DNA from: an uncultured virus (IMG/VR IMGVR_UViG_3300044568_006268)
Taxonomy: Duplodnaviria > Heunggongvirae > Uroviricota > Caudoviricetes
Reading direction: 5' to 3' (one strand)
Virus record (IMG/VR): IMGVR_UViG_3300044568_006268
Span: 62,001 to 126,000 of that record
DNA: 64,000 nucleotides
Shown here piece by piece: positions 1-44,913 of this stretch (position 1 is the first letter of the stretch; each line of letters begins with the position of its first letter). The position numbers were made by a program, and so were the translations under genes. The notes under the pieces were generated by a model that saw only the letters and a list, made by a program, of their open reading frames with translations, did not search any database and was not told where the DNA came from.

Positions 1-269
1 TCACGGAATTCCTCATCTTTTACGTTTCTCCAAAGATCTGGTGTAACTCCGATAAGTTCACCAGCTAATCCTCTCTTTTCCCACATTGCTTGCATTTTAG
101 CAAGTCCAGCATGTCTCCATGAAGAACTCATTACAATCTTAGCTCCAGTTTCATCTACAATTCGTTTTAGATTGTCCATGAAATGTTGATGGAATATTTG
201 ACCAAACTCATCGTGACCTTGTCCTATCACGTTAAGCACTCCGTCGATATCAAGAAATATTACTTTCAT
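1..269 (-). CDS. HAD-family phosphatase (Swiss-army-knife RNA-repair HAD type), runs off the window edge
   Basis: Manual translation from ATG at 269: MKVIFLDIDGVLN (DxDGV motif), later IVMSSSW; ATGA overlap with the upstream ORF. Confidence 0.75.
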   Translation of the reverse strand, partial: MKVIFLDIDGVLNVIGQGHDEFGQIFHQHFMDNLKRIVDETGAKIVMSSSWRHAGLAKMQAMWEKRGLAGELIGVTPDLWRNVKDEEFR

Positions 270-535
270 AACTTAAAGTATTTGCCTACTTTATCTAGCA
301 TTACCATATCTCGATTATCTTTAAAGGGCAGATCATCAATATCTTCGTATAAGTTTTGAACAAATACGTCTGCTTTATTTTTTGCAATGTAATTATTAAG
401 TTCCTTACGTTTTAAAGCAATTACAATTTCTTTAAGTTCGTCGACAGATAAGCCATCCAAATCACCAGATCCATCACTATAAACTTTGATTTCTCGAGCA
501 AGTGTAATAATAAAATTTGGTGATGATTTAACCAT
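266..535 (-). CDS. hypothetical protein
   Basis: 89 aa ORF, coupled to the next gene. Confidence 0.6.
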   Translation of the reverse strand: MVKSSPNFIITLAREIKVYSDGSGDLDGLSVDELKEIVIALKRKELNNYIAKNKADVFVQNLYEDIDDLPFKDNRDMVMLDKVGKYFKL

Positions 536-703
536 TTGATTTGTTCATTACGATTCCTAATTTATTCATATCAGCAAGATTTCCTTTAACATACTTTTTA
601 TTCCATTCTCCGTATGATAGGTTATAATTAATTTCCACCCAAAGATTAAAACCGCCAAACCATCTGCGAGTCCAAAAGTATTTTCCTGTTAGTCTTTTTT
701 CGT

Positions 704-1000
704 TCATATTAATTGGCCGTTTTCAATTTCTTCGGATCTCTTCAATAAACTAACTTCCTTTCTAATTTCACGTCTCCACCATTCCTTTGTAAGCTTAGGA
801 TTATGAATGTCCTTATAAATAGTAAATGCTACTTTAGGTTTTGCAATTTCTATTTCTTCACCCCATAAAATCCATTTCTTACGTTTAGTAATTTCCATAC
901 CATCGTAAAACTCGGTATATTCATAACTGTCGCATTCATTAGCTTCGCATTGAACGGCATATTGAAATTTTCTACCGTCGATTTCTATTTCTTTTAACAT
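704..1000 (-). CDS. hypothetical protein
   Basis: 98 aa ORF, TAATG overlap. Confidence 0.65.
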   Translation of the reverse strand: MLKEIEIDGRKFQYAVQCEANECDSYEYTEFYDGMEITKRKKWILWGEEIEIAKPKVAFTIYKDIHNPKLTKEWWRREIRKEVSLLKRSEEIENGQLI

Positions 1001-1191
1001 TATTCATTAGATATTAAGGCACCTAGCCAAGTTAATTCAAGTCCAACAACAAGTATTCTTCCACCGATAGAGTCAAATAACCACCAATGCATAGGATTAA
1101 AGTCCATAGCAACGAAAGAACCTACTACATAACATGATATATGCAATAGAATATAAAGCGCGAGTTTAAATAGATTTCTCTTCATTATCAA
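1000..1191 (-). CDS. small membrane protein
   Basis: Two hydrophobic segments. Confidence 0.55.
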   Translation of the reverse strand: MIMKRNLFKLALYILLHISCYVVGSFVAMDFNPMHWWLFDSIGGRILVVGLELTWLGALISNE

Positions 1192-1411
1192 GTATTTGAT
1201 TTTGGGTAGTATTAACTGATGCCGGAAATAACATTCGAGTAAGTAACATCATTAAGAACATATCGTTATACGATACGAAAGGTCCATCAAAAATTCTTGG
1301 TACAGTAAGATTCCAAAGAATCATGGTTGGAAATGCAAATACGGCAATTACAATAGCAGCAAGAATAAAATACTGAAAAGTTGCACTTATTCCGAGTAAG
1401 ATTGTCTTCAT
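1166..1411 (-). CDS. small membrane protein
   Basis: Hydrophobic 81 aa ORF downstream of a promoter box. Confidence 0.6.
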   Translation of the reverse strand: MKTILLGISATFQYFILAAIVIAVFAFPTMILWNLTVPRIFDGPFVSYNDMFLMMLLTRMLFPASVNTTQNQILDNEEKSI

Positions 1412-1508
1412 AATAAATAGTTTATTGTTATATGTTTGAAAGAGTAAATATAATCAACATTATCTAAAAATGAAAACTTTAGAGCATTTAGTTATTAACA
1501 AATACAAC

Positions 1509-1535
1509 AAAAGCTCAATCTTACGATTAAGCTTT
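1509..1535 (-). terminator. intrinsic terminator ending the His/Ser/Arg/Gln/Thr/Leu tRNA block
   Basis: AAAGCTTAATC-loop-GATTGAGCTTTTG on the minus strand. Confidence 0.6.
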
Positions 1536-1592
1536 ATCGAAGGTATATTAGGCCATACCAATAACCAGGACCTTTTCCCTAGGGAAATGTCG

Positions 1593-1675
1593 TGACCAAA
1601 GAGGGACTCGAACCCTCACGCTCAAAGAGCACCAGCTTCTTAGACTGGCGTGTCTACCAATTCCACCACTCGGCC
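1593..1675 (-). tRNA. tRNA-Leu(AAG), A34 anticodon
   Basis: Stem CCAGT/GCTGG, loop CT-AAG-AA, long variable arm, GGTTCGAGTCC T-arm. Confidence 0.85.
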
Positions 1676-1803
1676 GTAATGAGCAATCCTATGGAATTAC
1701 TGCAGTTTATCCAAAGGTCGTATATAGCTTGCAGACTAAGATTCTGCTGGATTTTCACCTTCATAAAGCTGGATATCAACGACCCTTATCGCGATTCTCA
1801 TTG

Positions 1804-1877
1804 TACCCGAGATGGGACTCGAACCCACACTGTACAGGGTTTAAGTCTGATGCCTCTTCCAATTGGGCTACCCGGGC
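1804..1877 (-). tRNA. tRNA-Leu(TAA), short variable arm
   Basis: Cloverleaf, loop CT-TAA-AC, imperfect anticodon stem. Confidence 0.8.
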
Positions 1878-2044
1878 AAATTAAAGAAGTAAGAAAATGA
1901 ACTCCTTAACAGCTGAACGTTCAATAACTTTAAGAATCATTTTGCTTGTATCTCTAGGATTTGCAACTCCTATAAATTCACAAAATGCTTTTTGTTTATT
2001 CATTATTGTTCATTTCAATTTTGTTATTGCATTATTAGGAATAA

Positions 2045-2115
2045 CGATACTATAGGACTCGAACCTATACCTTCCAGCTCGCTCGCCGGAATTCTACCAA
2101 ATTAAACTAAATACC
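2045..2115 (-). ncRNA. tRNA-like RNA with non-canonical anticodon loop
   Basis: D-arm and T-arm present; TTCCGGC-GAGCGA-GCTGGAA replaces the 7-nt loop. Confidence 0.6.
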
Positions 2116-2153
2116 AACCTTTTTATCTCAATAACAAAAGATGTCCTTCTTTG

Positions 2154-2226
2154 TACCTAAGGAGGGATTCGAACCCACACTGTCATGCTCCTAAGGCATG
2201 TGCCTCTTCCGTTGGGCTACTTAGGC
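2154..2226 (-). tRNA. tRNA-Leu(TAG)
   Basis: CATGC-CTTAGGA-GCATG. Confidence 0.9.
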
Positions 2227-2434
2227 AAATTGGTAAGTGATGGCCTACTTGTTACCATCTGTCTCTGTTTAGTTGCAACCACTAATCCTGAATGTAGAGA
2301 ACTTACCTTTTGTTTTATGTTAGCTAATAAACATTGTTTCTAATGTTATTAACATCATCTTTTTAATTTTTGTACATTATAATATACATTAAGCCACAAT
2401 ATGACGTGTTTTGTATATTATAGTGTACATTTTG

Positions 2435-2507
2435 AGCTGACAATCAGGATCGAACTGATGACCTCTTCGATACCAACGAAGTGTTCTTCCAACTGAACTA
2501 TGTCTGC
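2435..2507 (-). tRNA. tRNA-Thr(GGT)
   Basis: CTTCG-TTGGTAT-CGAAG. Confidence 0.9.
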
Positions 2508-2513
2508 ATATTA

Positions 2514-2612
2514 CAGGGTTGTTAATTACCTCTTTCGAGGATTTCGGAGTTGAACCGATAGACAAAATTTCAAGTTTCGTGTTTAACCAATAGTTGTTTG
2601 CTGAAACAACCC
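2514..2612 (-). ncRNA. structured RNA: GGGTTGTT-TCAGCAA...AACAACCCTG helix enclosing a tRNA core
   Basis: 8-bp closing helix; internal D-like TGGTTAAAC, CGAAA-CTTGAAA-TTTTG arm, TCGG-TTCAACT-CCGA T-arm. Confidence 0.55.
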
Positions 2613-2617
2613 TTTTG

Positions 2618-2691
2618 AGCTGACAGTCAGGATCGAACTGACTCTGTTCCGGGTTACAAATCCGGTGCACCACCATTCATGCGTTGCCAGC
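2618..2691 (-). tRNA. tRNA-Thr(TGT)
   Basis: CCGGA-TTTGTAA-CCCGG. Confidence 0.85.
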
Positions 2692-2701
2692 ATATGTTTC
2701 G

Positions 2702-2772
2702 TTGGGATACTAGGTTTCGAACCTAGGCGGACTGGCTCAAAACCAGTAATGCTACCGTTACATCATATCCCA
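2702..2772 (-). tRNA. tRNA-Gln(TTG)
   Basis: ACTGG-TTTTGAG-CCAGT. Confidence 0.85.
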
Positions 2773-2778
2773 ATGTAG

Positions 2779-2849
2779 TTATCCGAGGTGGATTCGAACC
2801 ACCAATGACTGCACCAAAAACAGTAGTGTTACCGTTACACTATCGGACA
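2779..2849 (-). tRNA. tRNA-Gln(TTG)
   Basis: ACTGT-TTTTGGT-GCAGT. Confidence 0.9.
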
Positions 2850-2850
2850 G

Positions 2851-2924
2851 TGACCATAATAGGATTCGAACCTATAACCGCTGGTTTAGAAAACCAGTGC
2901 TCTATCCAATTGAGCTATATGGCC
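2851..2924 (-). tRNA. tRNA-Arg(TCT)
   Basis: CTGGT-TTTCTAA-ACCAG. Confidence 0.9.
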
Positions 2925-2995
2925 AATTAAGTTCTCCAACCCTGGAACTTATACATATCATCATTAAGCGGTCACATAGAATGTGAGATATGTTG

Positions 2996-3081
2996 AAGAG
3001 AAGATGGGACTCGAACCCACAAACCGAATTAACGGTTAACGGATTAGCAATCCGCTGCAGTACCATTATGCTTACTTCTCT
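2996..3081 (-). tRNA. tRNA-Ser(GCT)
   Basis: GCGGA-TTGCTAA-TCCGT, long variable arm. Confidence 0.9.
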
Positions 3082-3189
3082 ATAAAAAGTTAAAGGCAGA
3101 ATTCCAAATCTGCATTTTTATTCTAAAACGAGAATAACGTGAGTTTTATCGATACGTCTATCGAGGCAATTATCACTACTTTAACTTAA

Positions 3190-3279
3190 TGGAGGAGAGA
3201 GTGGGATTCGAACCCACGGAACGCTTTCACGCTCAATAGTTTTCAAGACTATCCTAATCAACCTCTCTAGCACCTCTCC
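3190..3279 (-). tRNA. tRNA-Ser(TGA), encoded CCA
   Basis: ATAGT-CTTGAAA-ACTAT, long variable arm. Confidence 0.9.
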
Positions 3280-3285
3280 ATTATT

Positions 3286-3363
3286 TGGGGTGGAAGACGG
3301 GACTCGAACCCGCGATCTCTAGAACCACAATCTAGCGCTTTAACCAACTAAGCTACAACCACC
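3286..3363 (-). tRNA. tRNA-His(GTG), encoded CCA
   Basis: CTAGA-TTGTGGT-TCTAG, G-1. Confidence 0.9.
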
Positions 3364-3374
3364 ATGTATAAAAC

Positions 3375-3409
3375 AAAAAAGCTCGATTCATTTGATAGAA
3401 CCGAGCTTT
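3375..3409 (-). terminator. attenuator terminator C
   Basis: AAAGCTCGGTTC-loop-GAATCGAGCTTTTTTG between leader C and tRNA-His. Confidence 0.85.
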
Positions 3410-3443
3410 GCAATTTAGTATTTATATTTTCACATAAGAACCA

Positions 3444-3518
3444 TCACACTTCGGTACTGTTTTCAGATCTTGTTAGATGCTGAAGCGACGTTAACGATAA
3501 TGTACTTGAAGTTCTCAT
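3444..3518 (-). CDS. leader peptide C, MRTSSTLSLTSLQHLTRSENSTEV
   Basis: Manual translation; codons 2-18 are only R/T/S/L/Q/H, the amino acids of the downstream tRNAs. Confidence 0.85.
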   Translation of the reverse strand: MRTSSTLSLTSLQHLTRSENSTEV

Positions 3519-3550
3519 TGTTTGTAATTTATTATTTTTTATATATACTG

Positions 3551-3578
3551 TTATATGTCTAAAATTGCTGAGAGTTTC
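3551..3578 (-). promoter_or_regulatory. GAAACT-N15-CATATAA promoter, block C
   Basis: Same bipartite motif and spacing at 6140, 9470, 44908 and 56118. Confidence 0.7.
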
Positions 3579-3602
3579 AAAAAACTTTCAATTTATTTTC
3601 TA

Positions 3603-3701
3603 GTGAAGACAATTGGGATCGAACCAATGGCACGCCTATGTTCCTTATCGATCATACCAATAAGTACTGAAGGTTGCTCTACCAACTGAGCTATATCTTC
3701 A
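3603..3701 (-). ncRNA. tRNA-like RNA with expanded anticodon arm
   Basis: Acceptor, D (TAGCTCAGTTGGTAGAGC) and T arms intact; extra CTTATTGGT/ATCGATAAG hairpin in place of the anticodon loop. Confidence 0.7.
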
Positions 3702-3705
3702 TTTG

Positions 3706-3776
3706 TAGCGGATTAAGGACTCGAACCTCGCCATTGGGTTATGAGCCCGATATGCTACCAATTACACTAAACCGCA
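3706..3776 (-). tRNA. tRNA-Met(CAT), initiator-like
   Basis: GGG-CTCATAA-CCC. Confidence 0.8.
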
Positions 3777-3778
3777 AG

Positions 3779-3875
3779 ATGACCTTAAGGATTCGAACCT
3801 TTAACTTGTTTCCTCTTTTAGTTTTGCAAACCTACTCAATTCTACCGTGCCCAATACACTATTGCCAATCGTCAT
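3779..3875 (-). ncRNA. degenerate/expanded tRNA-like RNA (possible GCA loop)
   Basis: AAGGTTCGAATCCTT T-arm, TGAC/GTCA ends, TTGCAAA loop; irregular D region. Confidence 0.4.
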
Positions 3876-3917
3876 TTTCGAACATGACAGCCTTAAGTTA
3901 ATTACTCTTAAGATTTG

Positions 3918-3989
3918 TAGTCCCACCGGGAATCGAACCCGACTTTTCAGGATGAAAACCTGATGACCTAACCGATAGTCGATAGGACC
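3918..3989 (-). tRNA. tRNA-Glu(TTC)
   Basis: TCAGG-TTTTCAT-CCTGA. Confidence 0.9.
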
Positions 3990-4172
3990 AATTAAGTTAT
4001 ATCAAATTCTCCCGCAGAGATACCGACCCATTGCTGAGCCAGAGAGGACTTGAACCTCTGATTCTCAATAACTAATTTAAAAGAATTAAAGAGTAGAGCT
4101 CTTCAACGATTTCGGCATTTCAGCTGGATCTTTATGCCAACTTCCTAATCCTTAGTCCGTTTAATTCTTGTA

Positions 4173-4247
4173 GTATTATGTACGGGACTCGAACCCGTGT
4201 TATCAACGTGAAAGGCTGACGTCCTAGACCAACTAGACGAACATAAC
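4173..4247 (-). tRNA. tRNA-Glu(TTC)
   Basis: TCAGC-CTTTCAC-GTTGA. Confidence 0.9.
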
Positions 4248-4251
4248 ATTT

Positions 4252-4464
4252 TTAAGCTTCTTCAGAGACAAGTCCTAAAACTTCTTCTCTGTAAATTTTA
4301 TTCAATTCACTTACTTCAATATCGATATTCGTTTGTGGATATCGGTGAAGTAAAATCTTAACTAATCTGATTCGTTTCTCAGCCAAATCTTGATTAAAGT
4401 CCATTTCAATCATTGCATCACTTAAATGAGATTGAATTGCGATTGATAATTTGATAGTTTCCAT
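4252..4464 (-). CDS. hypothetical protein
   Basis: 70 aa ORF behind a promoter box at 4488-4546. Confidence 0.65.
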   Translation of the reverse strand: METIKLSIAIQSHLSDAMIEMDFNQDLAEKRIRLVKILLHRYPQTNIDIEVSELNKIYREEVLGLVSEEA

Positions 4465-4558
4465 AATGTGATTGTTTAATTTTAATAAGTAAAACTAATC
4501 AATTTAATTGACATATGGAAATTATTTTTCAAAAAGTTATTAACAATTTTAAAATAAA

Positions 4559-4732
4559 AAGTTTGTCACCGGCACAGATTGGTGAATACCCAAGTACAAC
4601 CGAATGTACCCGATACCTTACTAACAAAATGAACGGATCTGTGTTTCCTGTATGCGGCAAGTGACCTCCTTCCTTGCTTGTGTTTCCGTATCGATGTGTG
4701 CGGCAACATACCATTTTGAGTTCAACAAACTT
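4559..4732 (-). ncRNA. candidate structured ncRNA
   Basis: Closing helix AAGTTTGTT/GACAAACTT; internal repeat TTGCCGCA...GGAAACACA twice; directly 3' of tRNA-Met. Confidence 0.45.
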
Positions 4733-4736
4733 CTTG

Positions 4737-4809
4737 TAGCGGGAGCAGGACTCGAACCTGCGACCTTTGGGTTATGAGCCCACTGAGCTACCAACTGCTC
4801 TATCCCGCA
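4737..4809 (-). tRNA. tRNA-fMet(CAT)
   Basis: GGG-CTCATAA-CCC, unpaired 1:72. Confidence 0.9.
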
Positions 4810-4835
4810 ATATACCTTTTAAGTAGAACCATCAA

Positions 4836-5027
4836 CTATATTTCTGTTGATGATTCTAATTGTCTTAATTTTAAACCTTCTTCAATTGTTTGAATGATGT
4901 CCTCAATTATTTGAGCTCGCGTAACATCAAAGTTACCATTCATTCCATTCAAATCTTTTGCATCAATTGCAATAGATCCTACTGACTTACCGTCTTTCTG
5001 TAATTCAATTACTAATGTATCAAACAT
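4836..5027 (-). CDS. hypothetical protein
   Basis: 63 aa ORF. Confidence 0.6.
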   Translation of the reverse strand: MFDTLVIELQKDGKSVGSIAIDAKDLNGMNGNFDVTRAQIIEDIIQTIEEGLKLRQLESSTEI

Positions 5028-5092
5028 AATATAGCTTTTTATTTAATTGTTTTATGCAATTTGAAATAAATTGTTTCTCTTCTTATTAACAT

Positions 5093-5551
5093 CTATCTAC
5101 AGATTCTATCAGCTACATATGAAGCCGAGCATGCATCTGGTTTACATCTAGCGTTATAACCTAATGATTCTACATAACCTAAAGCAGAACGCAGAATTGA
5201 ATTAGATTGATACTTAGGGTCTGGATTAAAATCCAAATCAATAAATGCAGGTTTTTCAATATCATTAGCTTCAAGCCATTGAGCTAATTCAACTGAATCT
5301 TCTACCTCTTTCCAAAGTCTAGTAAATCTATCTAAGATTCTAGGAATTGATTTACGAGAGTAGATAACGTGACCTCCTCGATTACCGTAATGTAAAACAA
5401 TAACCATTGCGTAAATTGTATTTCTTCCAATATTTTGCGAATCTGAACCGATATACATTTTGATGTCTTTACCAGTTGCGAGTTTGTCCTTTAAATAAGG
5501 AATTAAGTCAATTACTTGACCGTTTGTTAACGATTGAAATTTCCGGTCCAT
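5093..5551 (-). CDS. RNase H-like YkuK (DUF458) family protein
   Basis: YIGSDSQ ... EVEDS ... IDLD ... KPDA.SASYVAD pattern. Confidence 0.8.
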   Translation of the reverse strand: MDRKFQSLTNGQVIDLIPYLKDKLATGKDIKMYIGSDSQNIGRNTIYAMVIVLHYGNRGGHVIYSRKSIPRILDRFTRLWKEVEDSVELAQWLEANDIEKPAFIDLDFNPDPKYQSNSILRSALGYVESLGYNARCKPDACSASYVADRICR

Positions 5552-5571
5552 GATTATTAAATTTATGTTAG

Positions 5572-5642
5572 AGGCGAGTATAGGATTCGAACCTATGTAA
5601 CTGATTTTGCAGACCAGCGCCTAACCGCTCGGCCAACTCGCC
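5572..5642 (-). tRNA. tRNA-Cys(GCA)
   Basis: CTGGT-CTGCAAA-ATCAG. Confidence 0.9.
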
Positions 5643-5647
5643 ATTTG

Positions 5648-5719
5648 TGACTCTAGAGAGACTCGAACTCCCATCTCCTGATCCGTAGTCAAGTGTTCTA
5701 TCCATTGAACTATAGAGCC
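5648..5719 (-). tRNA. tRNA-Arg(ACG)
   Basis: CTTGA-CTACGGA-TCAGG. Confidence 0.9.
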
Positions 5720-5728
5720 ATTATTTTG

Positions 5729-5801
5729 TCGGGAAGACAGGACTCGAACCTGCGGCCTCATGCTCCCAAAGCACGCGATCTACCAACTGATCTACTTCCC
5801 G
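5729..5801 (-). tRNA. tRNA-Pro(TGG)
   Basis: CGTGC-TTTGGGA-GCATG. Confidence 0.9.
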
Positions 5802-5848
5802 TGGCAGAGAGGCTTTTGAAGTGCCCTGCTAGTTCATCTTTTAATTTG

Positions 5849-5922
5849 TCGAATAGACAGGAATCGAACCTGCTAACTGATACGTCCAAGGTACCCGTGC
5901 TTAAAACCTTAGTCACTACTCG
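5849..5922 (-). tRNA. tRNA-Pro(TGG), divergent
   Basis: GGTAC-CTTGGAC-GTATC. Confidence 0.75.
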
Positions 5923-5931
5923 TTTAAAAAC

Positions 5932-5967
5932 AAAAAAGCCTGAATCGGTTGAATGATTCAGGCTTTT
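5932..5967 (-). terminator. attenuator terminator B
   Basis: AAAAGCCTGAATC-loop-GATTCAGGCTTTTTTG between leader B and tRNA-Pro. Confidence 0.85.
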
Positions 5968-5988
5968 ATATGATGATGTTACTTTATA

Positions 5989-6084
5989 TCATTCAAAAAC
6001 CTGCATACCATTCTCACATGCCTCAGGACGAGGGCATTCTACTGTTAACTGCGATGTTGTTAGTATGTGTGAAAGTATTAACAT
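5989..6084 (-). CDS. leader peptide B, MLILSHILTTSQLTVECPRPEACENGMQVFE
   Basis: Manual translation; ECPRPEACENGM matches the downstream Pro, Arg(ACG), Cys, Met and Glu tRNAs. Confidence 0.8.
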   Translation of the reverse strand: MLILSHILTTSQLTVECPRPEACENGMQVFE

Positions 6085-6139
6085 TTTAATTTTTATTAGC
6101 AAAGACTCTTTATCTTTGTTTAGTTCTTTTATATATCTT

Positions 6140-6167
6140 TTATATGTTCCGTTATTGCGGAAGTTTC
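6140..6167 (-). promoter_or_regulatory. GAAACT-N15-CATATAA promoter, block B
   Basis: Repeated bipartite motif. Confidence 0.7.
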
Positions 6168-6328
6168 AAAATTATTTTATTCTTTTCTATTTGTGCTTTA
6201 ATCTTAGCAATCTTTTCTGGACTAGGATTTCTATCTATCGTATACGAAACACCCATCTTGTCCATGTAATCGTAAAGAAGTTGCATATCTTCATTAGTAG
6301 TTTTAGTTGTTTTCATAATAACTATTTG

Positions 6329-6402
6329 AGCGGATATTCGGATTCGAACCGAAACTTCAGACTTGGAAGGCCCACGTGCTAGCCGTTAAACACCATACCC
6401 GC
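6329..6402 (-). tRNA. tRNA-Gly(TCC)
   Basis: loop CT-TCC-AA. Confidence 0.88.
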
Positions 6403-6412
6403 ATTTTGTTTG

Positions 6413-6485
6413 AGCAATAAATCAGATTCGAACTGACGACCTCTACCTTGGCAAGGTAATGCTCTACCAACTGAGCTATTATTGC
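6413..6485 (-). tRNA. tRNA-Gly(GCC)
   Basis: TTACC-TTGCCAA-GGTAG. Confidence 0.9.
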
Positions 6486-6552
6486 ATTTGAAGGACTTGC
6501 ACCTTCTGGACATGGTTTGTTTCGCCTAAGTCGCCATGTCAACAGACCCGAG

Positions 6553-6624
6553 AGGGCAGAGTGAGATTCGAACTCACGACCAGTTGATTAACAGTCAACT
6601 GCTCTACCGCTGAGCTATCCACCC
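6553..6624 (-). tRNA. tRNA-Asn(GTT)
   Basis: GTTGA-CTGTTAA-TCAAC. Confidence 0.88.
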
Positions 6625-6630
6625 TTATTG

Positions 6631-6741
6631 CAGGAATGTAAGGAATCGAACCTTAGCATCTTCCGAGACAGGGAGTAATTTATGCAGAATACAATCTTCG
6701 CAGATTGAGTTTTAAGCGTGCTACCATTACACCACATTCCT
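6631..6741 (-). ncRNA. tRNA-Asp(GTC)-like RNA with a 40-nt insertion (6674-6713) in the anticodon stem
   Basis: Removing the insert gives CTTCC-CTGTCTC-GGAAG; G73 discriminator. Confidence 0.65.
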
Positions 6742-6749
6742 GTATTTTG

Positions 6750-6866
6750 TGGGCTCATATGGGCTCGAACCATAATCTCTTCCTAATGACATCCTACCAT
6801 ACTAAAAAGGAATCGAACCTTAGACTCATTATCGAGAAAGCGCTTTGCCAATTAAGCTAATCGCCC
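6750..6866 (-). ncRNA. tRNA-like RNA with a second, permuted T/D elbow in place of the anticodon loop
   Basis: Outer cloverleaf arms; inner TAATGA[AAGGTTCGATTCCTT...TAGTATGGTAGGATG]TCATTA. Confidence 0.65.
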
Positions 6867-6872
6867 ATGTAG

Positions 6873-7004
6873 TGAAGAATCCTAGACTCGAACTAGGAAT
6901 GTCAATTAAGACGCCGGTTTTACATCCTTTAAATTGCTGAATAAACACTTTGCACAGTGTTTGCCTTTTTGGACCGGAGCGTTTACCAATTCCGCCAATT
7001 CTTC
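6873..7004 (-). ncRNA. tRNA-Tyr(GTA)-like RNA with a 47-nt insertion (6925-6971) in the anticodon loop
   Basis: Removing the insert gives CCGGT-CTGTAAA-ACCGG; G1:C72, A73, long variable arm. Confidence 0.7.
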
Positions 7005-7011
7005 ATTATTG

Positions 7012-7083
7012 TTCTCCCGCTGGGAGTCGAACCCAGCCTCATAGATTAAAAGTCTATTGCCCACACCAGTCTGCTACGAGAGA
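7012..7083 (-). tRNA. tRNA-Lys(TTT), divergent
   Basis: ATAGA-CTTTTAA-TCTAT. Confidence 0.8.
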
Positions 7084-7169
7084 TTGTAAAGTTTTCTATT
7101 GCCAACCTCTCAACAGTGTAGAGTATTGACCTATCTATGTTTTCGCTTCATGTTCATTATATTATTTAG

Positions 7170-7243
7170 TGGCCAAGCCTGGACTCGAACCAGGGACCTT
7201 CGCATTATGAGTGCGCCGCTCTAACCAACTGAGCTACATGGCC
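7170..7243 (-). tRNA. tRNA(CAT), Ile2 or elongator Met
   Basis: CGCA-CTCATAA-TGCG. Confidence 0.85.
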
Positions 7244-7359
7244 AAAAATGTAGGGTTATCCGGTACCTACACTGATTAATGACAATCAGACCATCGTTCA
7301 CCACCTGTAAGAGCCTAACGATAGATACTGTACTTGCTTACACTCAAGTATCCGCTGGG

Positions 7360-7433
7360 TAGCGAGGACCGGGATCGAACCGGCGACCTTTGGTTTATGA
7401 ATCCAATGTTACTACCAACTGAACTACCTCGCC
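7360..7433 (-). tRNA. tRNA-Met(CAT), elongator
   Basis: loop TT-CAT-AA. Confidence 0.85.
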
Positions 7434-7472
7434 AAATTGTAAGTTTTGAATGGACTTACAACCATTGATAGA

Positions 7473-7703
7473 TTATTGGTGATGAGGAATATACTTTCCG
7501 TTCTTAACTCTAACTGCCAGTTTGGTCACGTTAAAATTCCAACAATCAAATGTACTTAATGCAGATCTTTGTTTTGCAAGACTAATGGCTTGCTTTTCTG
7601 CTTTTTCTCGACCTTCTTCCGTTGTTTCGACGAAAAAAGTGGGAGCCTGAACACCAGTCTTACTGGTAGGAACTACTCTCCAAATTCTCAAATTAGTAAT
7701 CAT
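7473..7703 (-). CDS. hypothetical protein
   Basis: 76 aa ORF. Confidence 0.6.
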   Translation of the reverse strand: MITNLRIWRVVPTSKTGVQAPTFFVETTEEGREKAEKQAISLAKQRSALSTFDCWNFNVTKLAVRVKNGKYIPHHQ

Positions 7704-7783
7704 AAGTTTTAGCTAAGCTAGACCTATGAGGAATTGTACGATTTTGTTGACATTTGATTTATATTTTTTTATTATATGTTCGA

Positions 7784-8230
7784 TTAAGCCAGAGATTCAA
7801 TAACCTCTTTTACTAATTTTGTATCGGCAAGACCTGGAAATTTCTTAACGAAAGCACCCATAGTCATACCTATTAATTTTTGTTTGTTTAATTCTAAAAC
7901 AGAACCGAGTAAAACATTAACTTCAGTTTCAATTTCAGCTCTAGTCATTTGCTTTGGCAAGTACTTTTCAATAACACCTAATTCATTAGCTTCAGATTCC
8001 ACTAAATCGAATCGACCAGCTTTTGTAAATTCTTCAATAGATTGTCTACGTTGTTTGATTGTAGAAATTACTGCATTTAGAACTAACTCATCAGTAAGTG
8101 GACCAGCATGCTTTGCCTTTTCAGCATCTTGGATTTTTGCCTTTAATCCACTTAATGCATTCTTCGCAATCGCGTTTTTCTCTTTGAATGCTACTATATA
8201 GTCAGCATTGATTGTTTCTCTTAAATTCAT
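7784..8230 (-). CDS. GatB/YqeY domain protein
   Basis: KQRRQSIEEF..AGR.DL...E..EL..IEKYLPKQM signature. Confidence 0.9.
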   Translation of the reverse strand: MNLRETINADYIVAFKEKNAIAKNALSGLKAKIQDAEKAKHAGPLTDELVLNAVISTIKQRRQSIEEFTKAGRFDLVESEANELGVIEKYLPKQMTRAEIETEVNVLLGSVLELNKQKLIGMTMGAFVKKFPGLADTKLVKEVIESLA

Positions 8231-8246
8231 CTTTACTAATTTTTAG

Positions 8247-8327
8247 TGGGCAACAGTGGACTCGAACCACTCCCGTGAGGACCAGATTTACAGTCTGGCT
8301 GCCGTATCCGAACGACTTTTGCGGCCC
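8247..8327 (-). tRNA. tRNA-Tyr(GTA)
   Basis: CCAGA-CTGTAAA-TCTGG. Confidence 0.85.
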
Positions 8328-8336
8328 ATTATATTG

Positions 8337-8410
8337 TGACTCCTCTGGGACTCGAACCCAGGACTCCCTCATTAAAAGTGAGGTGCTCTAGCCGACTGAG
8401 CTAAGAAGTC
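8337..8410 (-). tRNA. tRNA-Lys(TTT)
   Basis: CCTCA-CTTTTAA-TGAGG. Confidence 0.9.
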
Positions 8411-8420
8411 ATTGTAATAG

Positions 8421-8494
8421 CAGTCCTAACGGAATTCGAATCCGCAATCTCTTCCGTGACAGGGAAGCGTCATACGCCAATATGCTGTAGGACT
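8421..8494 (-). tRNA. tRNA-Asp(GTC)
   Basis: CTTCC-CTGTCAC-GGAAG. Confidence 0.85.
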
Positions 8495-8581
8495 ATATAA
8501 AAATTATTTAGTTTAAGCTCCTTTAAACCATGTAATTTCAGGGAGCTATTTGAGCTTATGCATGGAACTAAATAATAATTG

Positions 8582-8655
8582 CCGAGATGACGGGACTCGA
8601 ACCCGTGACCTTCGCCGTGACAGGGCGACATTGTAACCAACTCTACTACACCTCG
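8582..8655 (-). tRNA. tRNA-Asp(GTC)
   Basis: TCGCC-CTGTCAC-GGCGA. Confidence 0.9.
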
Positions 8656-8710
8656 ATTTCTAATTTCACGCTCACACTATGCAGTTCTATAAATTAGTAA
8701 CAGTCTCATC

Positions 8711-8788
8711 TGGGCTCTCCTGACTGGATTCGAACCAGTAACCCTCACCTTAACAGGGTGTCGCTCTAACCGTTGGAGCTACAGGAGA
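8711..8788 (-). tRNA. tRNA-Asn(GTT)
   Basis: CACC-CTGTTAA-GGTG. Confidence 0.9.
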
Positions 8789-8873
8789 ATATTTGATGTT
8801 TTAATTATAAGACAAATATAAACAATGTCATTGACATATGAAAATATTTAATCAAATAGTTATTAACAATTTG

Positions 8874-8945
8874 TGGAGCTACCGGGATTCGAACCCGGAA
8901 TAACAGAGTGCAAGTCTATCGTGATGCCAATTTCACTATAGCCCC
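8874..8945 (-). tRNA. tRNA-Ala(TGC)
   Basis: loop CT-TGC-AC, G3:U70. Confidence 0.9.
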
Positions 8946-8955
8946 ATTAAATTTG

Positions 8956-9030
8956 TAGGAGATGACGGAATCGAACCGACGACCTTTTGCGTGTAAAACA
9001 AACGCTCTAAACCAACTGAGCTAATCTCCT
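8956..9030 (-). tRNA. tRNA-Val(TAC)
   Basis: TTTGT-TTTACAC-GCAAA. Confidence 0.9.
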
Positions 9031-9036
9031 AAATTG

Positions 9037-9110
9037 TAGGTAATATGAGACTCGAACTCATAACCTCCTCGGTATCAGCGAGGTGCTCTAACCAATTGAG
9101 CTAACTACCT
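9037..9110 (-). tRNA. tRNA-Ile(GAT)
   Basis: CCTCG-CTGATAC-CGAGG. Confidence 0.9.
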
Positions 9111-9117
9111 GTGGCAG

Positions 9118-9188
9118 CACGAATGGAAGGATTCGAACCTTCATCGACGGTTTTGGAGACCGGCATGCTACCATTGCACCACACTCGT
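9118..9188 (-). tRNA. tRNA-Trp(CCA)
   Basis: CGGT-CTCCAAA-ACCG. Confidence 0.9.
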
Positions 9189-9195
9189 ATTTTAG

Positions 9196-9268
9196 TGGTA
9201 AGGGACGGGATCGAACCGTCATCATCGGATTTTCAGTCCGCTGCATAGACCAACTTTGCTACCTCACC
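9196..9268 (-). tRNA. tRNA-Phe(GAA)
   Basis: CGGA-CTGAAAA-TCCG. Confidence 0.9.
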
Positions 9269-9274
9269 AAAAAC

Positions 9275-9308
9275 AAAAAACCTCTGAATTTTTGAAGATT
9301 CAGAGGTT
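9275..9308 (-). terminator. attenuator terminator A
   Basis: AACCTCTGAAT-loop-ATTCAGAGGTTTTTTG between leader A and tRNA-Phe. Confidence 0.85.
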
Positions 9309-9335
9309 AAAGTATATTGTATTAAAATATCGATA

Positions 9336-9434
9336 CTACATCCGAATCACATTGCTATCCACATAATCATTCCCGGCAAACTTAATCGCCCAGTCAAAAT
9401 TCATGTTAATATTTATGTTAGTAGTAGGTATCAT
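9336..9434 (-). CDS. leader peptide A, MIPTTNININMNFDWAIKFAGNDYVDSNVIRM
   Basis: Manual translation; codons 6-26 use only, and all of, the 11 amino acids of the downstream tRNA block. Confidence 0.85.
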   Translation of the reverse strand: MIPTTNININMNFDWAIKFAGNDYVDSNVIRM

Positions 9435-9469
9435 TTTATTGATGTTTTAATATTGTTTTATATATACTG

Positions 9470-9497
9470 TTATATGTTCTAAATTTCAAAAAGTTTC
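9470..9497 (-). promoter_or_regulatory. GAAACT-N15-CATATAA promoter, block A
   Basis: Repeated bipartite motif; ACATATAACAGTATATA identical to block C. Confidence 0.7.
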
Positions 9498-9526
9498 AAC
9501 TTATTTTTATATTATTTTAATCTTAG

Positions 9527-10090
9527 TTAGTCCCACCAAGAATCATATTCTTTAGCGAAGATTTCCATTGCTAAAGCAAAGTCTTTACTTCTATTCAAAT
9601 GAGCAATTTTCATACCCATTATGTATTCTTTGTTCTTTTTTCTCAGCTGAGCAGGTGTATATCGCTCATCATTCCTATCCATCAATCTGTGGCAATCTGG
9701 ACGATCTTCGCAAGGAATAGTATAGTAATCTGACTTACCCCATTTAGCGTCATGCTTTTCTCTATATGGCTCGTCGTAGTTATCTTCATGCACTTTCGTT
9801 AATAACTCTAAACATTCAGTCATCGTTCGAATTTGCTTTTCGCGATTCTCATCGACTGTATGGCCATGGTCTTTAACGTATTTGATATGAGCTTTCAACT
9901 TAAAAAGAATTGGTTCCATAATGTAATGGTTATCCCAATCTCTATCTCGCCATACAATAGGCATCCATCGAATTATATTCTTAATTCCTCTCACAAAATC
10001 CTTGGAAGGAATCTTGACGTATTCCTTCCAATAAAATTTTGCATTGTCTACCGCTTCTTCAACGTAGAACTTAATTCGTTCGTTTATCAT
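9527..10090 (-). CDS. hypothetical phage protein
   Basis: 187 aa ORF, WRDRDWD and C-terminal WWD. Confidence 0.75.
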   Translation of the reverse strand: MINERIKFYVEEAVDNAKFYWKEYVKIPSKDFVRGIKNIIRWMPIVWRDRDWDNHYIMEPILFKLKAHIKYVKDHGHTVDENREKQIRTMTECLELLTKVHEDNYDEPYREKHDAKWGKSDYYTIPCEDRPDCHRLMDRNDERYTPAQLRKKNKEYIMGMKIAHLNRSKDFALAMEIFAKEYDSWWD

Positions 10091-10104
10091 ATTGATGTTA
10101 TTGA

Positions 10105-11421
10105 TTAACCTTCAGCTTCTTCGGTATCAATTACTCCAGAATCTTTTACGATTCCTTCAAGTACTTTGAATTCGAAAGACTTGAATTTGAATGTTTTGTT
10201 TACCAAACCACCTTCAATTCTTACACAAACTCCTTCTTTGATATGTCTAGTATCTAAGATAGATGGACCAGTTCCGAATGTTTCGACGGTGTTGCTGAAA
10301 TATTCTCGCAAATCTCTATCATCGAATTTATGAGTGATTGCTTCTAATTCGTTTAAGGTTATCGTAGCAACATGTGGTACAGTTTTTACACCTAATTCAT
10401 TACAACGTTTTACAACATCATTCCAAGCATAATCGATAGATTGACCATCTTCATTAGCAAATGTCATACGGTAAACATAAACCTCAGATTGAGTAGGTTC
10501 ACAACCATAAGAATAAGCCATAGACTTACCGTATTGTTTCGTAAACTCTTTATCACCCATTTTGGTTGTATCAACAGATGGCATAATTGCAGCTCCTGTA
10601 GATTCGTAACCTACAATTTCAAAATAAACGGTTTCACCTTTTCTTAAGTTACCTTTGAATAAGTTCATTGCTTTATCTCGGATGGTTGGGTCATGGAATT
10701 GATTTGCGGATTTTGATTCTCCTAAAACAACTCTACGAGTACCATTCAAATAAGCCCATTCTTTGTCGTTGATAGCTAATCCAAATTTAGTAACAAGTTT
10801 TTCTAACCAACCTAATTCTCTAGTCATTTGAACGTGACCAATACGACCTGAAGTACCGTGAAGTTTTTCAGTAATAATGATGTGTTGACCCTTTTCAAAT
10901 TCGTGGATACTCTTACCAAAGTGTCCGGTATCAAAATGTTCTTTGAACATTACAGAAGATCTAGAAACTCGGGTTTTCTTACCTTGATTTTCTCTAGCAA
11001 TTTTAGCCGTATTTGGATTTACATATTTGTTACAGATAGGTACACCTTTCCATTCGTCAAATTCAAATCCTTCTACATCTAAACCAGTTACCATAATGAA
11101 TCCAAAGTAATGTAATGGAACCCAGAAACCATCAGAGATTTCACCTCTAAATTTTTGAGCTCTTACTCTTCGGTTTGCATCGAACATTCCACCTTTCTCA
11201 TCTTTTCTAGCATTTAACTCGGCATCACGATAAAGGTTGTTTGCTTTACAGAACTCATCGGATAACTGACCATCAGATGGAAAGTAAACTCCTAAATGTC
11301 CTTCTAAAGAATCTAAACCAATTACTACTTGATTACCGTGACAAGTTGCTAATTGAACTTTGTCTGCGTTAGGATGTGGTCTCACGTTTGTCAACCTAGT
11401 GACGATTGCATTGTATGCCAT
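10105..11421 (-). CDS. RNA ligase, DRB0094/Rnl2-like, with N-terminal tRNA-binding OB fold
   Basis: HPNADK N-domain; TEKLHGTS motif I; EGVCVR motif IV; FKFKS motif V. Confidence 0.85.
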   Translation of the reverse strand: MAYNAIVTRLTNVRPHPNADKVQLATCHGNQVVIGLDSLEGHLGVYFPSDGQLSDEFCKANNLYRDAELNARKDEKGGMFDANRRVRAQKFRGEISDGFWVPLHYFGFIMVTGLDVEGFEFDEWKGVPICNKYVNPNTAKIARENQGKKTRVSRSSVMFKEHFDTGHFGKSIHEFEKGQHIIITEKLHGTSGRIGHVQMTRELGWLEKLVTKFGLAINDKEWAYLNGTRRVVLGESKSANQFHDPTIRDKAMNLFKGNLRKGETVYFEIVGYESTGAAIMPSVDTTKMGDKEFTKQYGKSMAYSYGCEPTQSEVYVYRMTFANEDGQSIDYAWNDVVKRCNELGVKTVPHVATITLNELEAITHKFDDRDLREYFSNTVETFGTGPSILDTRHIKEGVCVRIEGGLVNKTFKFKSFEFKVLEGIVKDSGVIDTEEAEG

Positions 11422-11507
11422 GATTTCGTATTTTTAATTTATAAGACAAATATAATCAATGTCTTCGACACTTGAAAATAATTTCTCATTAAGTTATTAA
11501 CAATTAG

Positions 11508-11618
11508 TAGTCAGAACAGGATTCGAACCTGTATGGTGTTACCTAGAGTACTCAATACAGAGCGGTAAATCGGTTACGAACCATTACTCTTAGCGTCTTC
11601 CAATTCCGCCACCTGACT
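11508..11618 (-). ncRNA. isolated tRNA-like RNA with expanded, anticodon-less arm
   Basis: AGTCAGG/TCTGACT acceptor, TGGCGGAATTGGAAGACGC D-arm, ACAGGTTCGAATCCTGT T-arm. Confidence 0.7.
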
Positions 11619-11634
11619 CGATAGAACTAGCCTA

Positions 11635-11985
11635 TCATGATTGTGTAGATTTAATGTACACAATTATTCCAATGATTGAAAGAAAGCACAATGCTAATAC
11701 TGTTATTGCAGGTAAATAATCTTCTTTCTCTCTCCAAATTTTGTAATTATATCGAGGTTCGTTCTGCTTCCACGAATGGTCTTCAGACTTCTCAGACTTA
11801 ACATATTTTTTGTTTAGTTTTTTTAGGGATTTCCTAATTTCCTTTTTACATGGTTCAGCACCACAACAATAAAAAAATGATATATCTGTTTCGCTTATCA
11901 GCTTAGTAGTAGCTTCTTCCTCGCAACAATAACAATAATTTGGTTTCATATTAATACTCTTTAATGAGTACGGTACCATCTCCAT
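11635..11985 (-). CDS. Cys-rich protein with C-terminal TM (likely start about 11949)
   Basis: CxCC...CC..xxC and a hydrophobic tail. Confidence 0.55.
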   Translation of the reverse strand: MEMVPYSLKSINMKPNYCYCCEEEATTKLISETDISFFYCCGAEPCKKEIRKSLKKLNKKYVKSEKSEDHSWKQNEPRYNYKIWREKEDYLPAITVLALCFLSIIGIIVYIKSTQS

Positions 11986-12817
11986 GCTCTAAACAGTCAA
12001 CGCAAAAGATAGTGTCTTTTACTTCTGGCCATCTACCAGCAGTCGGTTCAGTATCGTATTCAGTTACTTTGTGATGGGGTGTATGTCCGATTACTTGGTC
12101 ATAACCTTCTAATGCATCCCATCTTAATCTTCTCGGTCTAATCCAAACAGGACCTGCAAATTCTGAATATCCACCAGAATCTCCATCTACGTTAAATAAA
12201 ATATTTAAACGATATTGCCAAGCTTTATTGATAATCTCATCCGGCCTAAGATTCCAATCTCCTTCAAAATCTGCTTTGAATCGGAAACCGTCTCTTTTAA
12301 CCGTTGCATGCAATTGGCGTAACCAACCATGAGTTACTCCAGCATGAGTCCATAAAGTTCGCTTTAACCTACCATCGATTTCTCTTTCATGATAATATGC
12401 GAAAGTAAATTTGTCGATGTTTTTAGTAAACAACTCTTGAAAATCAAATTTCATTTCAGGTCGATAACCTGAACAGATTTGATCGGCTACAATATATTGA
12501 ATATCGTGATTTCCTAAAAGCAAGACTATTTTGTCTGGATATTCGGTTTTTAAATGTATGATTTCCTCTAGATTTAATTTCATCTCTAGGTTTTGTACAT
12601 CAAATGAATCTACGTAATCTCCAACGAAAACGATTTTATCCATTTCGTTAAAAATAGGATAGGTGTCTTCAAACGCTTCTTTTGCTCCGTTATCTACTTC
12701 CTGTCTCCAGCTATTATAGTCCGTTAGAGAGCCGAATAACACAGTCTTCCAGGTATTTCTTCCGTGGATATCTCCGATAGACATGATTTTCATTGTAGTT
12801 TTCATTTTATGGTTCAT
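11951..12817 (-). CDS. calcineurin-like metallophosphoesterase
   Basis: GDIHG, GDYVD, GNHD, HAG, GHT motifs. Confidence 0.9.
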   Translation of the reverse strand: MNHKMKTTMKIMSIGDIHGRNTWKTVLFGSLTDYNSWRQEVDNGAKEAFEDTYPIFNEMDKIVFVGDYVDSFDVQNLEMKLNLEEIIHLKTEYPDKIVLLLGNHDIQYIVADQICSGYRPEMKFDFQELFTKNIDKFTFAYYHEREIDGRLKRTLWTHAGVTHGWLRQLHATVKRDGFRFKADFEGDWNLRPDEIINKAWQYRLNILFNVDGDSGGYSEFAGPVWIRPRRLRWDALEGYDQVIGHTPHHKVTEYDTEPTAGRWPEVKDTIFCVDCLEHGDGTVLIKEY

Positions 12818-44889: not shown

Positions 44890-44913
44890 TTACTCTTCTT
44901 TTTTGTTTATATG

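Follow-up and report, generated by a model that had tools for sequence, protein, structure and literature searches.

The DNA analysed here, a stretch of 64,000 nucleotides referred to as the window, spans positions 62,001 to 126,000 of IMG/VR record IMGVR_UViG_3300044568_006268, an uncultured member of Caudoviricetes, and harbors close to its beginning a large array of tRNA genes interrupted by three short leader open reading frames (ORFs), each of them placed ahead of an intrinsic terminator. The window is part of a 129-kb record, and the same region is found on a 294-kb contig. Phage tRNA genes have long been discussed as a means of codon compensation and lately as replacements for tRNAs cut by the defence nucleases of the host, and their regulation is almost unexplored. 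In this work, we describe the organization of this array and its comparison with related uncultured phages, with results that make it likely that each leader unit is a ribosome-mediated transcription attenuator gating the block of phage tRNA genes behind it.

ARAGORN identified 35 tRNA genes in the window, all of them on the minus strand between 1592 and 9268, and all array features described below lie on that strand as well. The genes are distributed in three serial units of one layout, in which a promoter-like box is followed by a short ORF, a strong intrinsic terminator and, 10-15 nt further on, a tRNA gene; jointly, the three blocks provide tRNAs for the 20 amino acids. Block A (6328..9268) contains 16 tRNA genes (Phe, Trp, Ile, Val, Ala, Asn, Asp, Asp, Lys, Tyr, Met, Met, Lys, Asn, Gly and Gly), block B (3603..5922) contains 8 (Pro, Pro, Arg-acg, Cys, Met, Glu, Glu and Met) and, at 3603-3700, a tRNA-like gene carrying an insertion, and block C (1592..3362) contains 11 (His, Ser, Ser, Arg-tct, Gln, Gln, Thr, Leu, one listed as ???, Leu and Leu), the first gene behind the terminator being tRNA-Phe in A, tRNA-Pro in B and tRNA-His in C. 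The array ends at a terminator at 1510..1535, and no terminator lies between the end of one block and the next unit, an arrangement that would set three checkpoints in series.

Exact copies of the core of the promoter-like box, GAAACT-N15-CATATAA, number five in the window: three head the units (9470-9497, 6140-6167 and 3551-3578), and two (44907-44934 and 56117-56144) sit directly before ordinary genes. With up to 2 mismatches allowed, 18 matches were found, on the minus strand only, against 5.0 +/- 2.4 in shuffled sequences. The full unit box reads TTGAAACT-N15-CATATAA, then (C/A)AG(T)ATATATAAAA, and covers 9456..9497 in unit A (where the core is followed by CAGTATATATAAAA), 6127..6167 in unit B and 3537..3578 in unit C; a longer box, CATATAACAGTATATATAAAA, is common to units A and C, the version in unit B being one base shorter. 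In a relative contig the box of unit A is 100% identical, and the neighbouring gene there is 93.8% identical. As the 10-15 nt gap from terminator to first tRNA is too short for a promoter, the first tRNAs of each block would be transcribed only via terminator read-through.

Between box and terminator, each unit has one minus-strand ORF of at least 20 amino acids, namely the leader. Leader A (9336..9434) has 32 codons and reads MIPTTNININMNFDWAIKFAGNDYVDSNVIRM; leader B (5989..6084) has 31 codons from its ATG, with a TTG start at 6102, and reads MLILSHILTTSQLTVECPRPEACENGMQVFE; leader C (3444..3518) has 24 codons and reads MRTSSTLSLTSLQHLTRSENSTEV. The regions upstream of the three leader ATGs, A-rich and devoid of Shine-Dalgarno (SD) motifs, resemble the gene starts of the phage itself. 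The intrinsic terminators, located 22-35 nt beyond the leader stop codon and carrying the tail TTTTTTGTTTT, comprise 11 pairs in unit A (9279..9308; -13.7 kcal/mol; T tract to 9269), 13 pairs in unit B (5934..5967; -18.0 kcal/mol; T tract) and 12 pairs in unit C (3378..3409; -16.5 kcal/mol; T tract). The sequence-only reading of this DNA had described a 35-tRNA array in three blocks covering all 20 amino acids, with the succession of promoter, ORF, terminator and first tRNA in each, together with the leader coordinates and their peptides; ARAGORN returned the same count and blocks, ORF calling recovered the same leaders, and exact boxes, sole ORFs and terminators of 11-13 pairs were found.

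The same reading had proposed that the codons of each leader match the tRNAs of its own block, and this proposal held when tested. Every amino-acid type of a block was found in its own leader (11/11 in A, 5/5 in B and 6/6 in C), and amino acids missing from a leader are all missing from its block too. Among the 6 possible pairings of leaders with blocks, the true one came first: it has 52 in-block residues and no missing type, against 41 and 2 for the runner-up. Under a strict null, in which the own dinucleotides of each ORF were shuffled and the result kept stop-free, leader A had 24/31 in-block residues against 17.3 (P=0.007), leader B 9/30 against 5.1 (P=0.036), and leader C 19/23 against 11.6, a value reached by 0/3000 shuffles. 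A match beyond that expected from own dinucleotides places the signal in the reading frame and not in composition. At the level of anticodon species, a cognate codon was present for 10/11 in leader A, 3/4 in leader B under strict wobble and 9/9 in leader C, and the Arg codons follow the block isoacceptors, with CGT in leader B and Arg(acg) in block B, and AGA in leader C and Arg(tct) in block C.

In order to compare leader and block content among relatives, an alignment of the YkuK-like protein was used to collect 80 IMG/VR loci, many with tRNA arrays; a locus search with a 187-aa upstream protein returned just two near-identical contigs. Units were called by an automatic rule that required a terminator of <= -9 kcal/mol outside a tRNA and, no more than 220 nt further downstream, a tRNA gene on the same strand; as leader it took the longest ORF with an ATG start and 14-65 aa whose end lies <=75 nt ahead of the stem. 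In all, 37 units were called, of which 22 remained after the exclusion of 3 lipoprotein-like MKR ORFs and de-duplication. The excluded ORFs (L057, L059 and L060, around 10545-10725) begin with MKR, contain a hydrophobic stretch, a Cys and VDTT repeats, and are followed by a terminator and Arg and Leu tRNAs; they were left out of the leader statistics as probable real proteins.

Over the 22 units, 11 block types were missing from the leaders, against 49.3 +/- 5.4 when leaders were replaced by real-protein segments or 56.5 +/- 5.7 with spurious short ORFs, and in-block residues amounted to 503 against about 431 expected; the observed values were reached by 0/50,000 random re-pairings. The result was alike for 17 units selected by hand, and in 16 units tested with the own-dinucleotide null, 4 block types were missing against 30.0 +/- 4.2. 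The fit extends to codons: 227/247 block anticodon species had a cognate leader codon, compared with 206.4 +/- 4.2 when synonymous codons were resampled according to the codon usage of the phage (0/5000). Individual leaders illustrate the match. The 52-aa leader of L025 lacks only Leu, its block likewise lacks only Leu, and the Leu tRNAs lie upstream of the leader; the leader of L014, read from a GTG start, covers 15/15 block types, with C, H and L absent from leader and block alike; and the leaders of L031, L076, L069 and L070 include all 20 amino acids within 38-45 residues.

The pattern was replicated in a hold-out set, for which metagenome contigs were scanned after the pattern had been set, and the same automatic rule was applied to 80 new loci. 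These include closer relatives (69-91% YkuK identity) displaying the three-unit architecture with diverged leaders. The A-type leaders MIPTTKMNINVNFDWAIKFAGNDYAHNNIIQM and MKTLNPIMNVFNFAWAIDFAYGNKDAIRTEFREFKS each cover 11/11 block types, five further B-type variants each cover their block in full (4/4 to 6/6), and two further C-type variants cover 7/7 each; all five B-type homologues retain Cys, Pro, Arg and Met, and four of the five retain Glu. In the 11 new non-redundant units, 1/64 block types was missing against 17.5 +/- 3.2, in-block residues were 155/344 against 99 to 105, and permutation of the pairings gave P=6e-5 and 4e-4. The comparison of leader and block content suggested together with the sequence-only reading came out positive in both sets, and the design is a family trait of related uncultured phages, not one unique to the window.

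A further claim had been that the last codons of each leader are complementary to the 5' arm of its terminator. When the terminator 3' arm was withheld from folding, the 5' arm indeed paired with the last ORF codons in all three window units; the complementarity exceeded that of dinucleotide shuffles only in unit B. There, the predicted antiterminator strand (5994..6013, GAATGGTATGCAGGTTTTTG) pairs with the terminator 5' arm AAAAGCCTG..ATCATTC over 9 bp, extendable to 16 (P=0.007-0.023), and the local antiterminator has -20.3 kcal/mol versus -18.0 kcal/mol for the terminator. The candidate strand in unit A (9337..9348, GATTCGGATGTA) pairs with the arm TCTGAATC, and unit C has a weak candidate at 3447..3456 (TACCGAAGTG). 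Over 17 units of the family, the partner strand lies inside the ORF in 17/17, its end being 1-33 nt ahead of the last stop-codon nucleotide, with a shuffle P<0.05 in 11/17.

The homologues point in the same direction: peptides and terminators have diverged, yet in homologues of all three leaders the ORF still complements the arm of the terminator that follows it. In B-type homologues, arms of the type AAAAGCCTG... go with ORF strands CAGG(T/C)T..., and a changed arm, AAAAGCCCAG..., goes with TGGGCT, the strand co-varying with the terminator in L101, L102, L104 and L094. The A-type homologues retain the strand, with AATTCAGATGTA in L093 (P=0.10) and AGTTCAGAGA in L101 (P=0.010), and in the C-type homologues L094 (P=0.047) and L102 (P=0.13) each ORF carries a complement to the terminator of its own unit, these terminators being different ones. 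Across 12 units, the pairing P values were 0.21, 0.10 and 0.010 for A; 0.007, 0.027, 0.053, 0.043, 0.050 and 0.010 for B; and 0.38, 0.047 and 0.13 for C. In a leader A variant from an RNA library, a CGG to CAG change turns the G-U of the antiterminator pairing into an A-U.

Alternative folds were evaluated with two models, the ribosome being represented by a mask with a 28-nt footprint, and the outcome differed among units: the predicted switch was seen for B in both models and for A in snapshot folding, and it was not seen for A at equilibrium nor for C in either. In the snapshot model, in which the transcript ends before the terminator 3' arm is made, the 5' arm of unit A was 0.77 paired, falling to 0.1-0.16 once the ribosome covers the last 7 codons, and in unit B pairing fell from 0.9 to about 0.35. 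Within the family, the 5' arm was more paired with a ribosome mid-ORF than with one at the stop codon in 14/17 units (Wilcoxon P=0.0056). The 5' arm was also paired when no ribosome was present (mean 0.71), for which reason the modelled switch logic is likely one of default read-through, with an unhindered ribosome required for termination.

Taken together, the frame-specific and pairing-specific match, its replication in the hold-out set, the codon fit and the covarying antiterminator support the core of the sequence-only reading, in which these are leader-peptide attenuators, and we regard it as probable that each unit is a ribosome-mediated attenuator gating its tRNA block. According to this proposal, the promoter-like box would drive a short transcript whose sole ORF samples every amino acid of the block at least once. 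Smooth translation to the end of the ORF would bring the ribosome over the antiterminator strand, the terminator hairpin would form and transcription would stop; conversely, if one of the sampled aminoacyl-tRNAs is scarce, an early stall would leave the strand free to pair with the 5' arm, no terminator would form and the polymerase would enter the tRNA genes. Without a loaded ribosome, the outcome would be the same as with an early stall, namely read-through into the tRNA genes. The net effect would be a negative feedback matching tRNA supply to demand, block by block. Since most amino acids are sampled by just 1-3 codons, the response would be best to severe tRNA loss and not to mild starvation, tRNA cleavage by host anticodon nucleases being an example of such a loss; the sequence-only reading had proposed starvation, PrrC, RloC, VapC and AriB as possible triggers.

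Several observations weigh against the attenuator interpretation. On the side of the RNA, the pairing in unit A comprises 8 bp including one G-U and is not above chance (P=0.18-0.21 versus dinucleotide shuffles), and that in unit C, of 5-7 bp, is not above chance either (P=0.31-0.38). Equilibrium folding with ribosome masks let the terminator win at all positions in A and C, with a switch in B only; the trp terminator is likewise more stable than its antiterminator, and equilibrium folding is therefore not decisive. In the snapshot model, the 5' arm of unit C stayed flat at 0.55 with no ribosome-dependent change. Regarding the codons, leader A offers no cognate codon to Gly(gcc) of its block and, under strict wobble, leader B offers none to Pro(tgg), a possible Gln-like tRNA at 6631-6741 in block A is unrepresented in leader A, and leader B has just 9/30 in-block residues, with block-C-type residues making up its first half; the window statistics of leader B alone are weak (P=0.04-0.18). 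In contig L092 the odd tRNA of block C is called as Ala, an amino acid that leader C does not sample, and the leaders of L034, L040, L041, L045 and L047 have no Cys codons despite a Cys tRNA. Moreover, classical attenuators have runs of codons, and single codons per amino acid stall the ribosome with a weaker signal; leader translation and conditional read-through are predicted features of the units.

Promoters placed elsewhere and the behavior of the closest relative add to this side of the balance. As the sequence-only reading had cautioned, promoter-like boxes are present inside the array, one between tRNA-Ala and tRNA-Asn (8805..8870, CATATGTCAAT, with ATGACA-16-TATAAT) and a second copy before the ORF 4464-4252 (4488..4546, CATATGTCAAT); exact matches to CATATGTCAAT in the window are limited to 8830-8840 and 4507-4517, and these internal boxes may drive the distal tRNAs independently. 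One clade of relatives has a promoter-like motif between the leader terminator and the array. Finally, the closest relative, L013, keeps an identical leader A before a block reduced to Phe, Trp, Ile, Met and Glu, and an unchanged leader before a shrunken block means that leader and cargo are not co-adapting on short time scales.

One alternative is a factor-dependent or timed antitermination, in which the modules would be closed until read through with the help of a phage antiterminator or by a modified polymerase, in the manner of lambda N/Q or put RNA, and the ORFs would sense nothing. The terminators of A and C, which dominate thermodynamically at any ribosome position, fit such a mechanism, as do the extreme conservation of the promoter and 5' region and the ordinary genes preceded by the same promoter-like box. 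We nevertheless hold it to be unlikely, as it leaves the frame-specific and pairing-specific match between leader and block unexplained, as well as the codon-level fit, and provides no reason for a complement of the terminator arm to lie always inside the 3' end of the ORF. Quite improbable, too, is that the ORFs are translated and tuned to their blocks with the output lying elsewhere, through a terminated RNA or micro-peptide acting in trans, or through an effect of translation on the maturation or stability of the tRNA precursor. In favor of this, the leader transcripts show more structure than shuffled sequences (z = -3.1, -2.7 and -5.2), peptide motifs such as MK..(L/F)RH recur in some of the leader homologues, and trans-acting attenuator RNAs and leader peptides are known, with rnTrpL and peTrpL as examples. 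Against this, the peptides diverge strongly among homologues while amino-acid coverage and terminator pairing are kept, and a terminator is always found between the ORF and the tRNAs.

A direct sensing of tRNA by a T-box-type RNA, with the ORFs incidental, would agree with an element that precedes translation-related genes and ends in a terminator, as T-boxes do. It is, however, very unlikely here, given that one specifier cannot account for 5 to 20 amino-acid specificities and that the signal depends on the reading frame; in addition, an Rfam scan of 1-12000 (E<=1) revealed no T-box, riboswitch or known leader above threshold, the only leader-type matches, Thr_leader (E=0.34) and trpB (E=0.82), having sub-gathering scores. 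Least probable of all, in our judgement, is a product of chance, that is, spurious ORFs in AT-rich spacers before ordinary terminators: short ORFs are common, and the window statistics of unit B alone, already mentioned, are weak, but the observed totals were reached by no simulation and the hold-out set replicates the pattern.

The attenuator reading has well-known counterparts. Leader-peptide attenuators control enterobacterial amino-acid operons such as trp, his, leu and pheA, with thr and ilvGMEDA as multivalent cases. The phage units share with them a promoter-near short ORF rich in regulatory codons, an intrinsic terminator before the regulated genes and, here as a prediction, a ribosome position that sets the alternative pairing of ORF-proximal RNA with the terminator 5' arm. 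They differ in that tRNA genes and not biosynthetic enzymes would be controlled; in that the leaders sample 5 to 20 amino acids, mostly 1-3 times each, whereas the enterobacterial leaders have runs of one to three amino acids; in that for most units the antiterminator seems to be the default without a ribosome according to snapshot folding, whereas trp has 1:2 pairing; and in being phage-borne and arranged three in series. The pheST attenuator of E. coli, with its pheM leader, is a leader-peptide attenuator before an aminoacyl-tRNA synthetase operon; the phage units resemble it in that leader-peptide attenuation would here, too, act on a component of the tRNA-charging machinery, and differ from it in that pheST has one amino-acid specificity, a protein-coding target and a cellular location.

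T-box riboswitches sense tRNA status and switch between terminator and antiterminator before translation-related genes (PMC2879506); they bind one uncharged tRNA directly without translation, whereas the phage signal is reading-frame dependent and gave no T-box match. For the short Salmonella leader ORFs mgtL and mgtP (of mgtA and mgtCBR), translation decides which stem-loops form, as is predicted for the phage units, and one mgt leader has tandem attenuators; what these ORFs sense is proline and Mg2+-related signals, and their targets are transporter and virulence genes in place of tRNA genes (PMC3641672). Phage tRNA genes that replace host tRNAs cut by defence nucleases (PMC10264068, PMC11555353, PMC12409363) provide the functional context, the present phage having a large tRNA set beside RNA-repair genes; in the text consulted, regulation by leader ORFs was not found, and the terms 'attenuat', 'leader', 'terminator' and 'promoter' occur 0 times in PMC10264068. 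Full-text literature searches returned no description of this design. Judged by analogy, the units appear to work like classical leader-peptide attenuators, with tRNA targets, 5-20 specificities and a phage-borne serial triple as the new elements.

The conservation of the leader modules was followed in a 17-kb relative (L001/L013), where identity amounts to 98.5-100% for the A and C modules, 93.8% for the neighbouring protein gene and 75-93% for the tRNA genes right behind; unit B is gone entirely, together with most of block A. In this relative a protein gene, homing-endonuclease-like by eye, is inserted right after tRNA-His. Precisely where terminator A ends, identity falls from 100% to 75-88%, a drop that suggests recombination break points at the leader modules. 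Substitutions in the leaders of L057, L059 and L060 (4 synonymous, 3 non-synonymous) are too sparse for a test. Regarding transcription, two metatranscriptome runs contained small shares of the window, and RNA-library contigs (depth 2-4) cover 9205-9428 and 5848-5995, running from leader through terminator to first tRNA, maybe as DNA carry-over; other contigs cover the promoter boxes themselves, with DNA carry-over possible and no ends or levels to be taken from them.

The leader of the clade with the additional promoter-like motif (L027, L040, L041, L043, L045 and L047) follows a tRNA-Met and has no box of its own. In these loci (e.g., L041, 3934-4364), GTTTGG-N~16-GATGTTATATT is followed by tRNA-Met, the leader ORF, a terminator and the same motif again, and a conserved TTTGACATATTGG precedes the main array, about 20 nt ahead of its first tRNA.

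Besides the genes called by default, the array includes an extra Thr(tgt) tRNA gene in block C (2618-2691), found by Rfam and a relaxed ARAGORN run, whose product would decode ACA and ACG in leader C. Three tRNA-like stretches, 3603-3700 in block B and 6631-6741 and 6872-7004 in block A, carry 8 to 47 nt of inserted sequence within or close to the anticodon arm and are missed by default ARAGORN; the first two were found by Rfam (44-46 bits) and the third by ARAGORN with introns. In view of these insertion-bearing genes, the array probably holds more than 35 tRNA genes, some of them interrupted. The tRNA at 2044-2116 has an anticodon loop of eight bases, and its anticodon is called with four letters (agcg; Ala or Arg); the corresponding block C gene of the near-identical contig L092 is called tRNA-Ala, and leader C has no Ala. 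Protein-coding ORFs are also interspersed, namely 7784-8230 (YqeY-like) and 7473-7703 in block A, and 5093-5551 (YkuK / RNase H-like), 4836-5027 and 4252-4464 in block B.

Upstream of the array, also on the minus strand, lie an RNA ligase gene (10105-11421; PF09414 plus the OB fold of PHA02142), just next to it, and a calcineurin-like metallophosphoesterase gene (11951-12817), plausibly a tRNA-repair pair, as would be consistent with tRNA-cleaving host defences. Between the two is a tRNA-like gene with anticodon tta (11507-11618, minus strand), recovered by Rfam (tRNA, 31 bits) and by ARAGORN with introns, whose anticodon loop is enlarged by 15 nt of inserted sequence; tta would read the stop codon UAA. 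ARAGORN also called 'Stop(tta)' tRNAs in the relatives L014 (around 8615) and L057 (around 18204), and SeC- and Pyl-type tRNAs in L015 and L081/L082; the tta tRNA-like genes may represent suppressor tRNAs or stop-codon recoding. Further genes identified with PHROGs on the same strand encode a nicotinamide phosphoribosyltransferase (NAMPT; 17397-18932) and a ribose-phosphate pyrophosphokinase (20220-21140), and NAD-salvage pairs of this kind occur in other large phages.

The genes for a tail fibre, an endolysin, NAMPT and the phosphoribosyl pyrophosphate (PRPP) synthetase indicate a large phage, described here as a jumbo phage, for which near-identity DNA and protein searches of cultured phage records gave tRNA-sized matches or nothing. 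The DNA of the window was present in 22 DNA sequencing runs, labelled mostly as lake-water, freshwater or estuary metagenomes. An SD-like 4-mer precedes just 3/71 phage genes and the upstream regions are A-rich, features that we take to fit a Bacteroidota host; the Bacteroidota-type promoter consensus TTTG-N17-23-TAnnTTTG occurred in the window at a chance-rate frequency, with none in the array.

We lean, by a modest degree, towards a broader proposal, in which these leader ORFs of widespread uncultured freshwater phages would act as a 'test-strip', that is, as general sensors of tRNA supply in which any stalled codon induces the matching block. They would then be the first attenuators known to act on tRNA genes, and the first whose specificities number up to 20, and would constitute an inducible counter to tRNA-cleaving defences, placed beside the RNA ligase and phosphoesterase genes. 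The three serial units, with their disjoint amino-acid sets, offer a natural internal control. If the proposal is true, a compact and portable sensor of individual tRNA availability would be at hand, as well as a reporter of tRNA-targeting immunity; leader-peptide attenuation would extend from amino-acid biosynthesis to tRNA genes, and from 1-3 to up to twenty specificities; and these phages would gauge the quality of translation and tune their tRNA supply by feedback.

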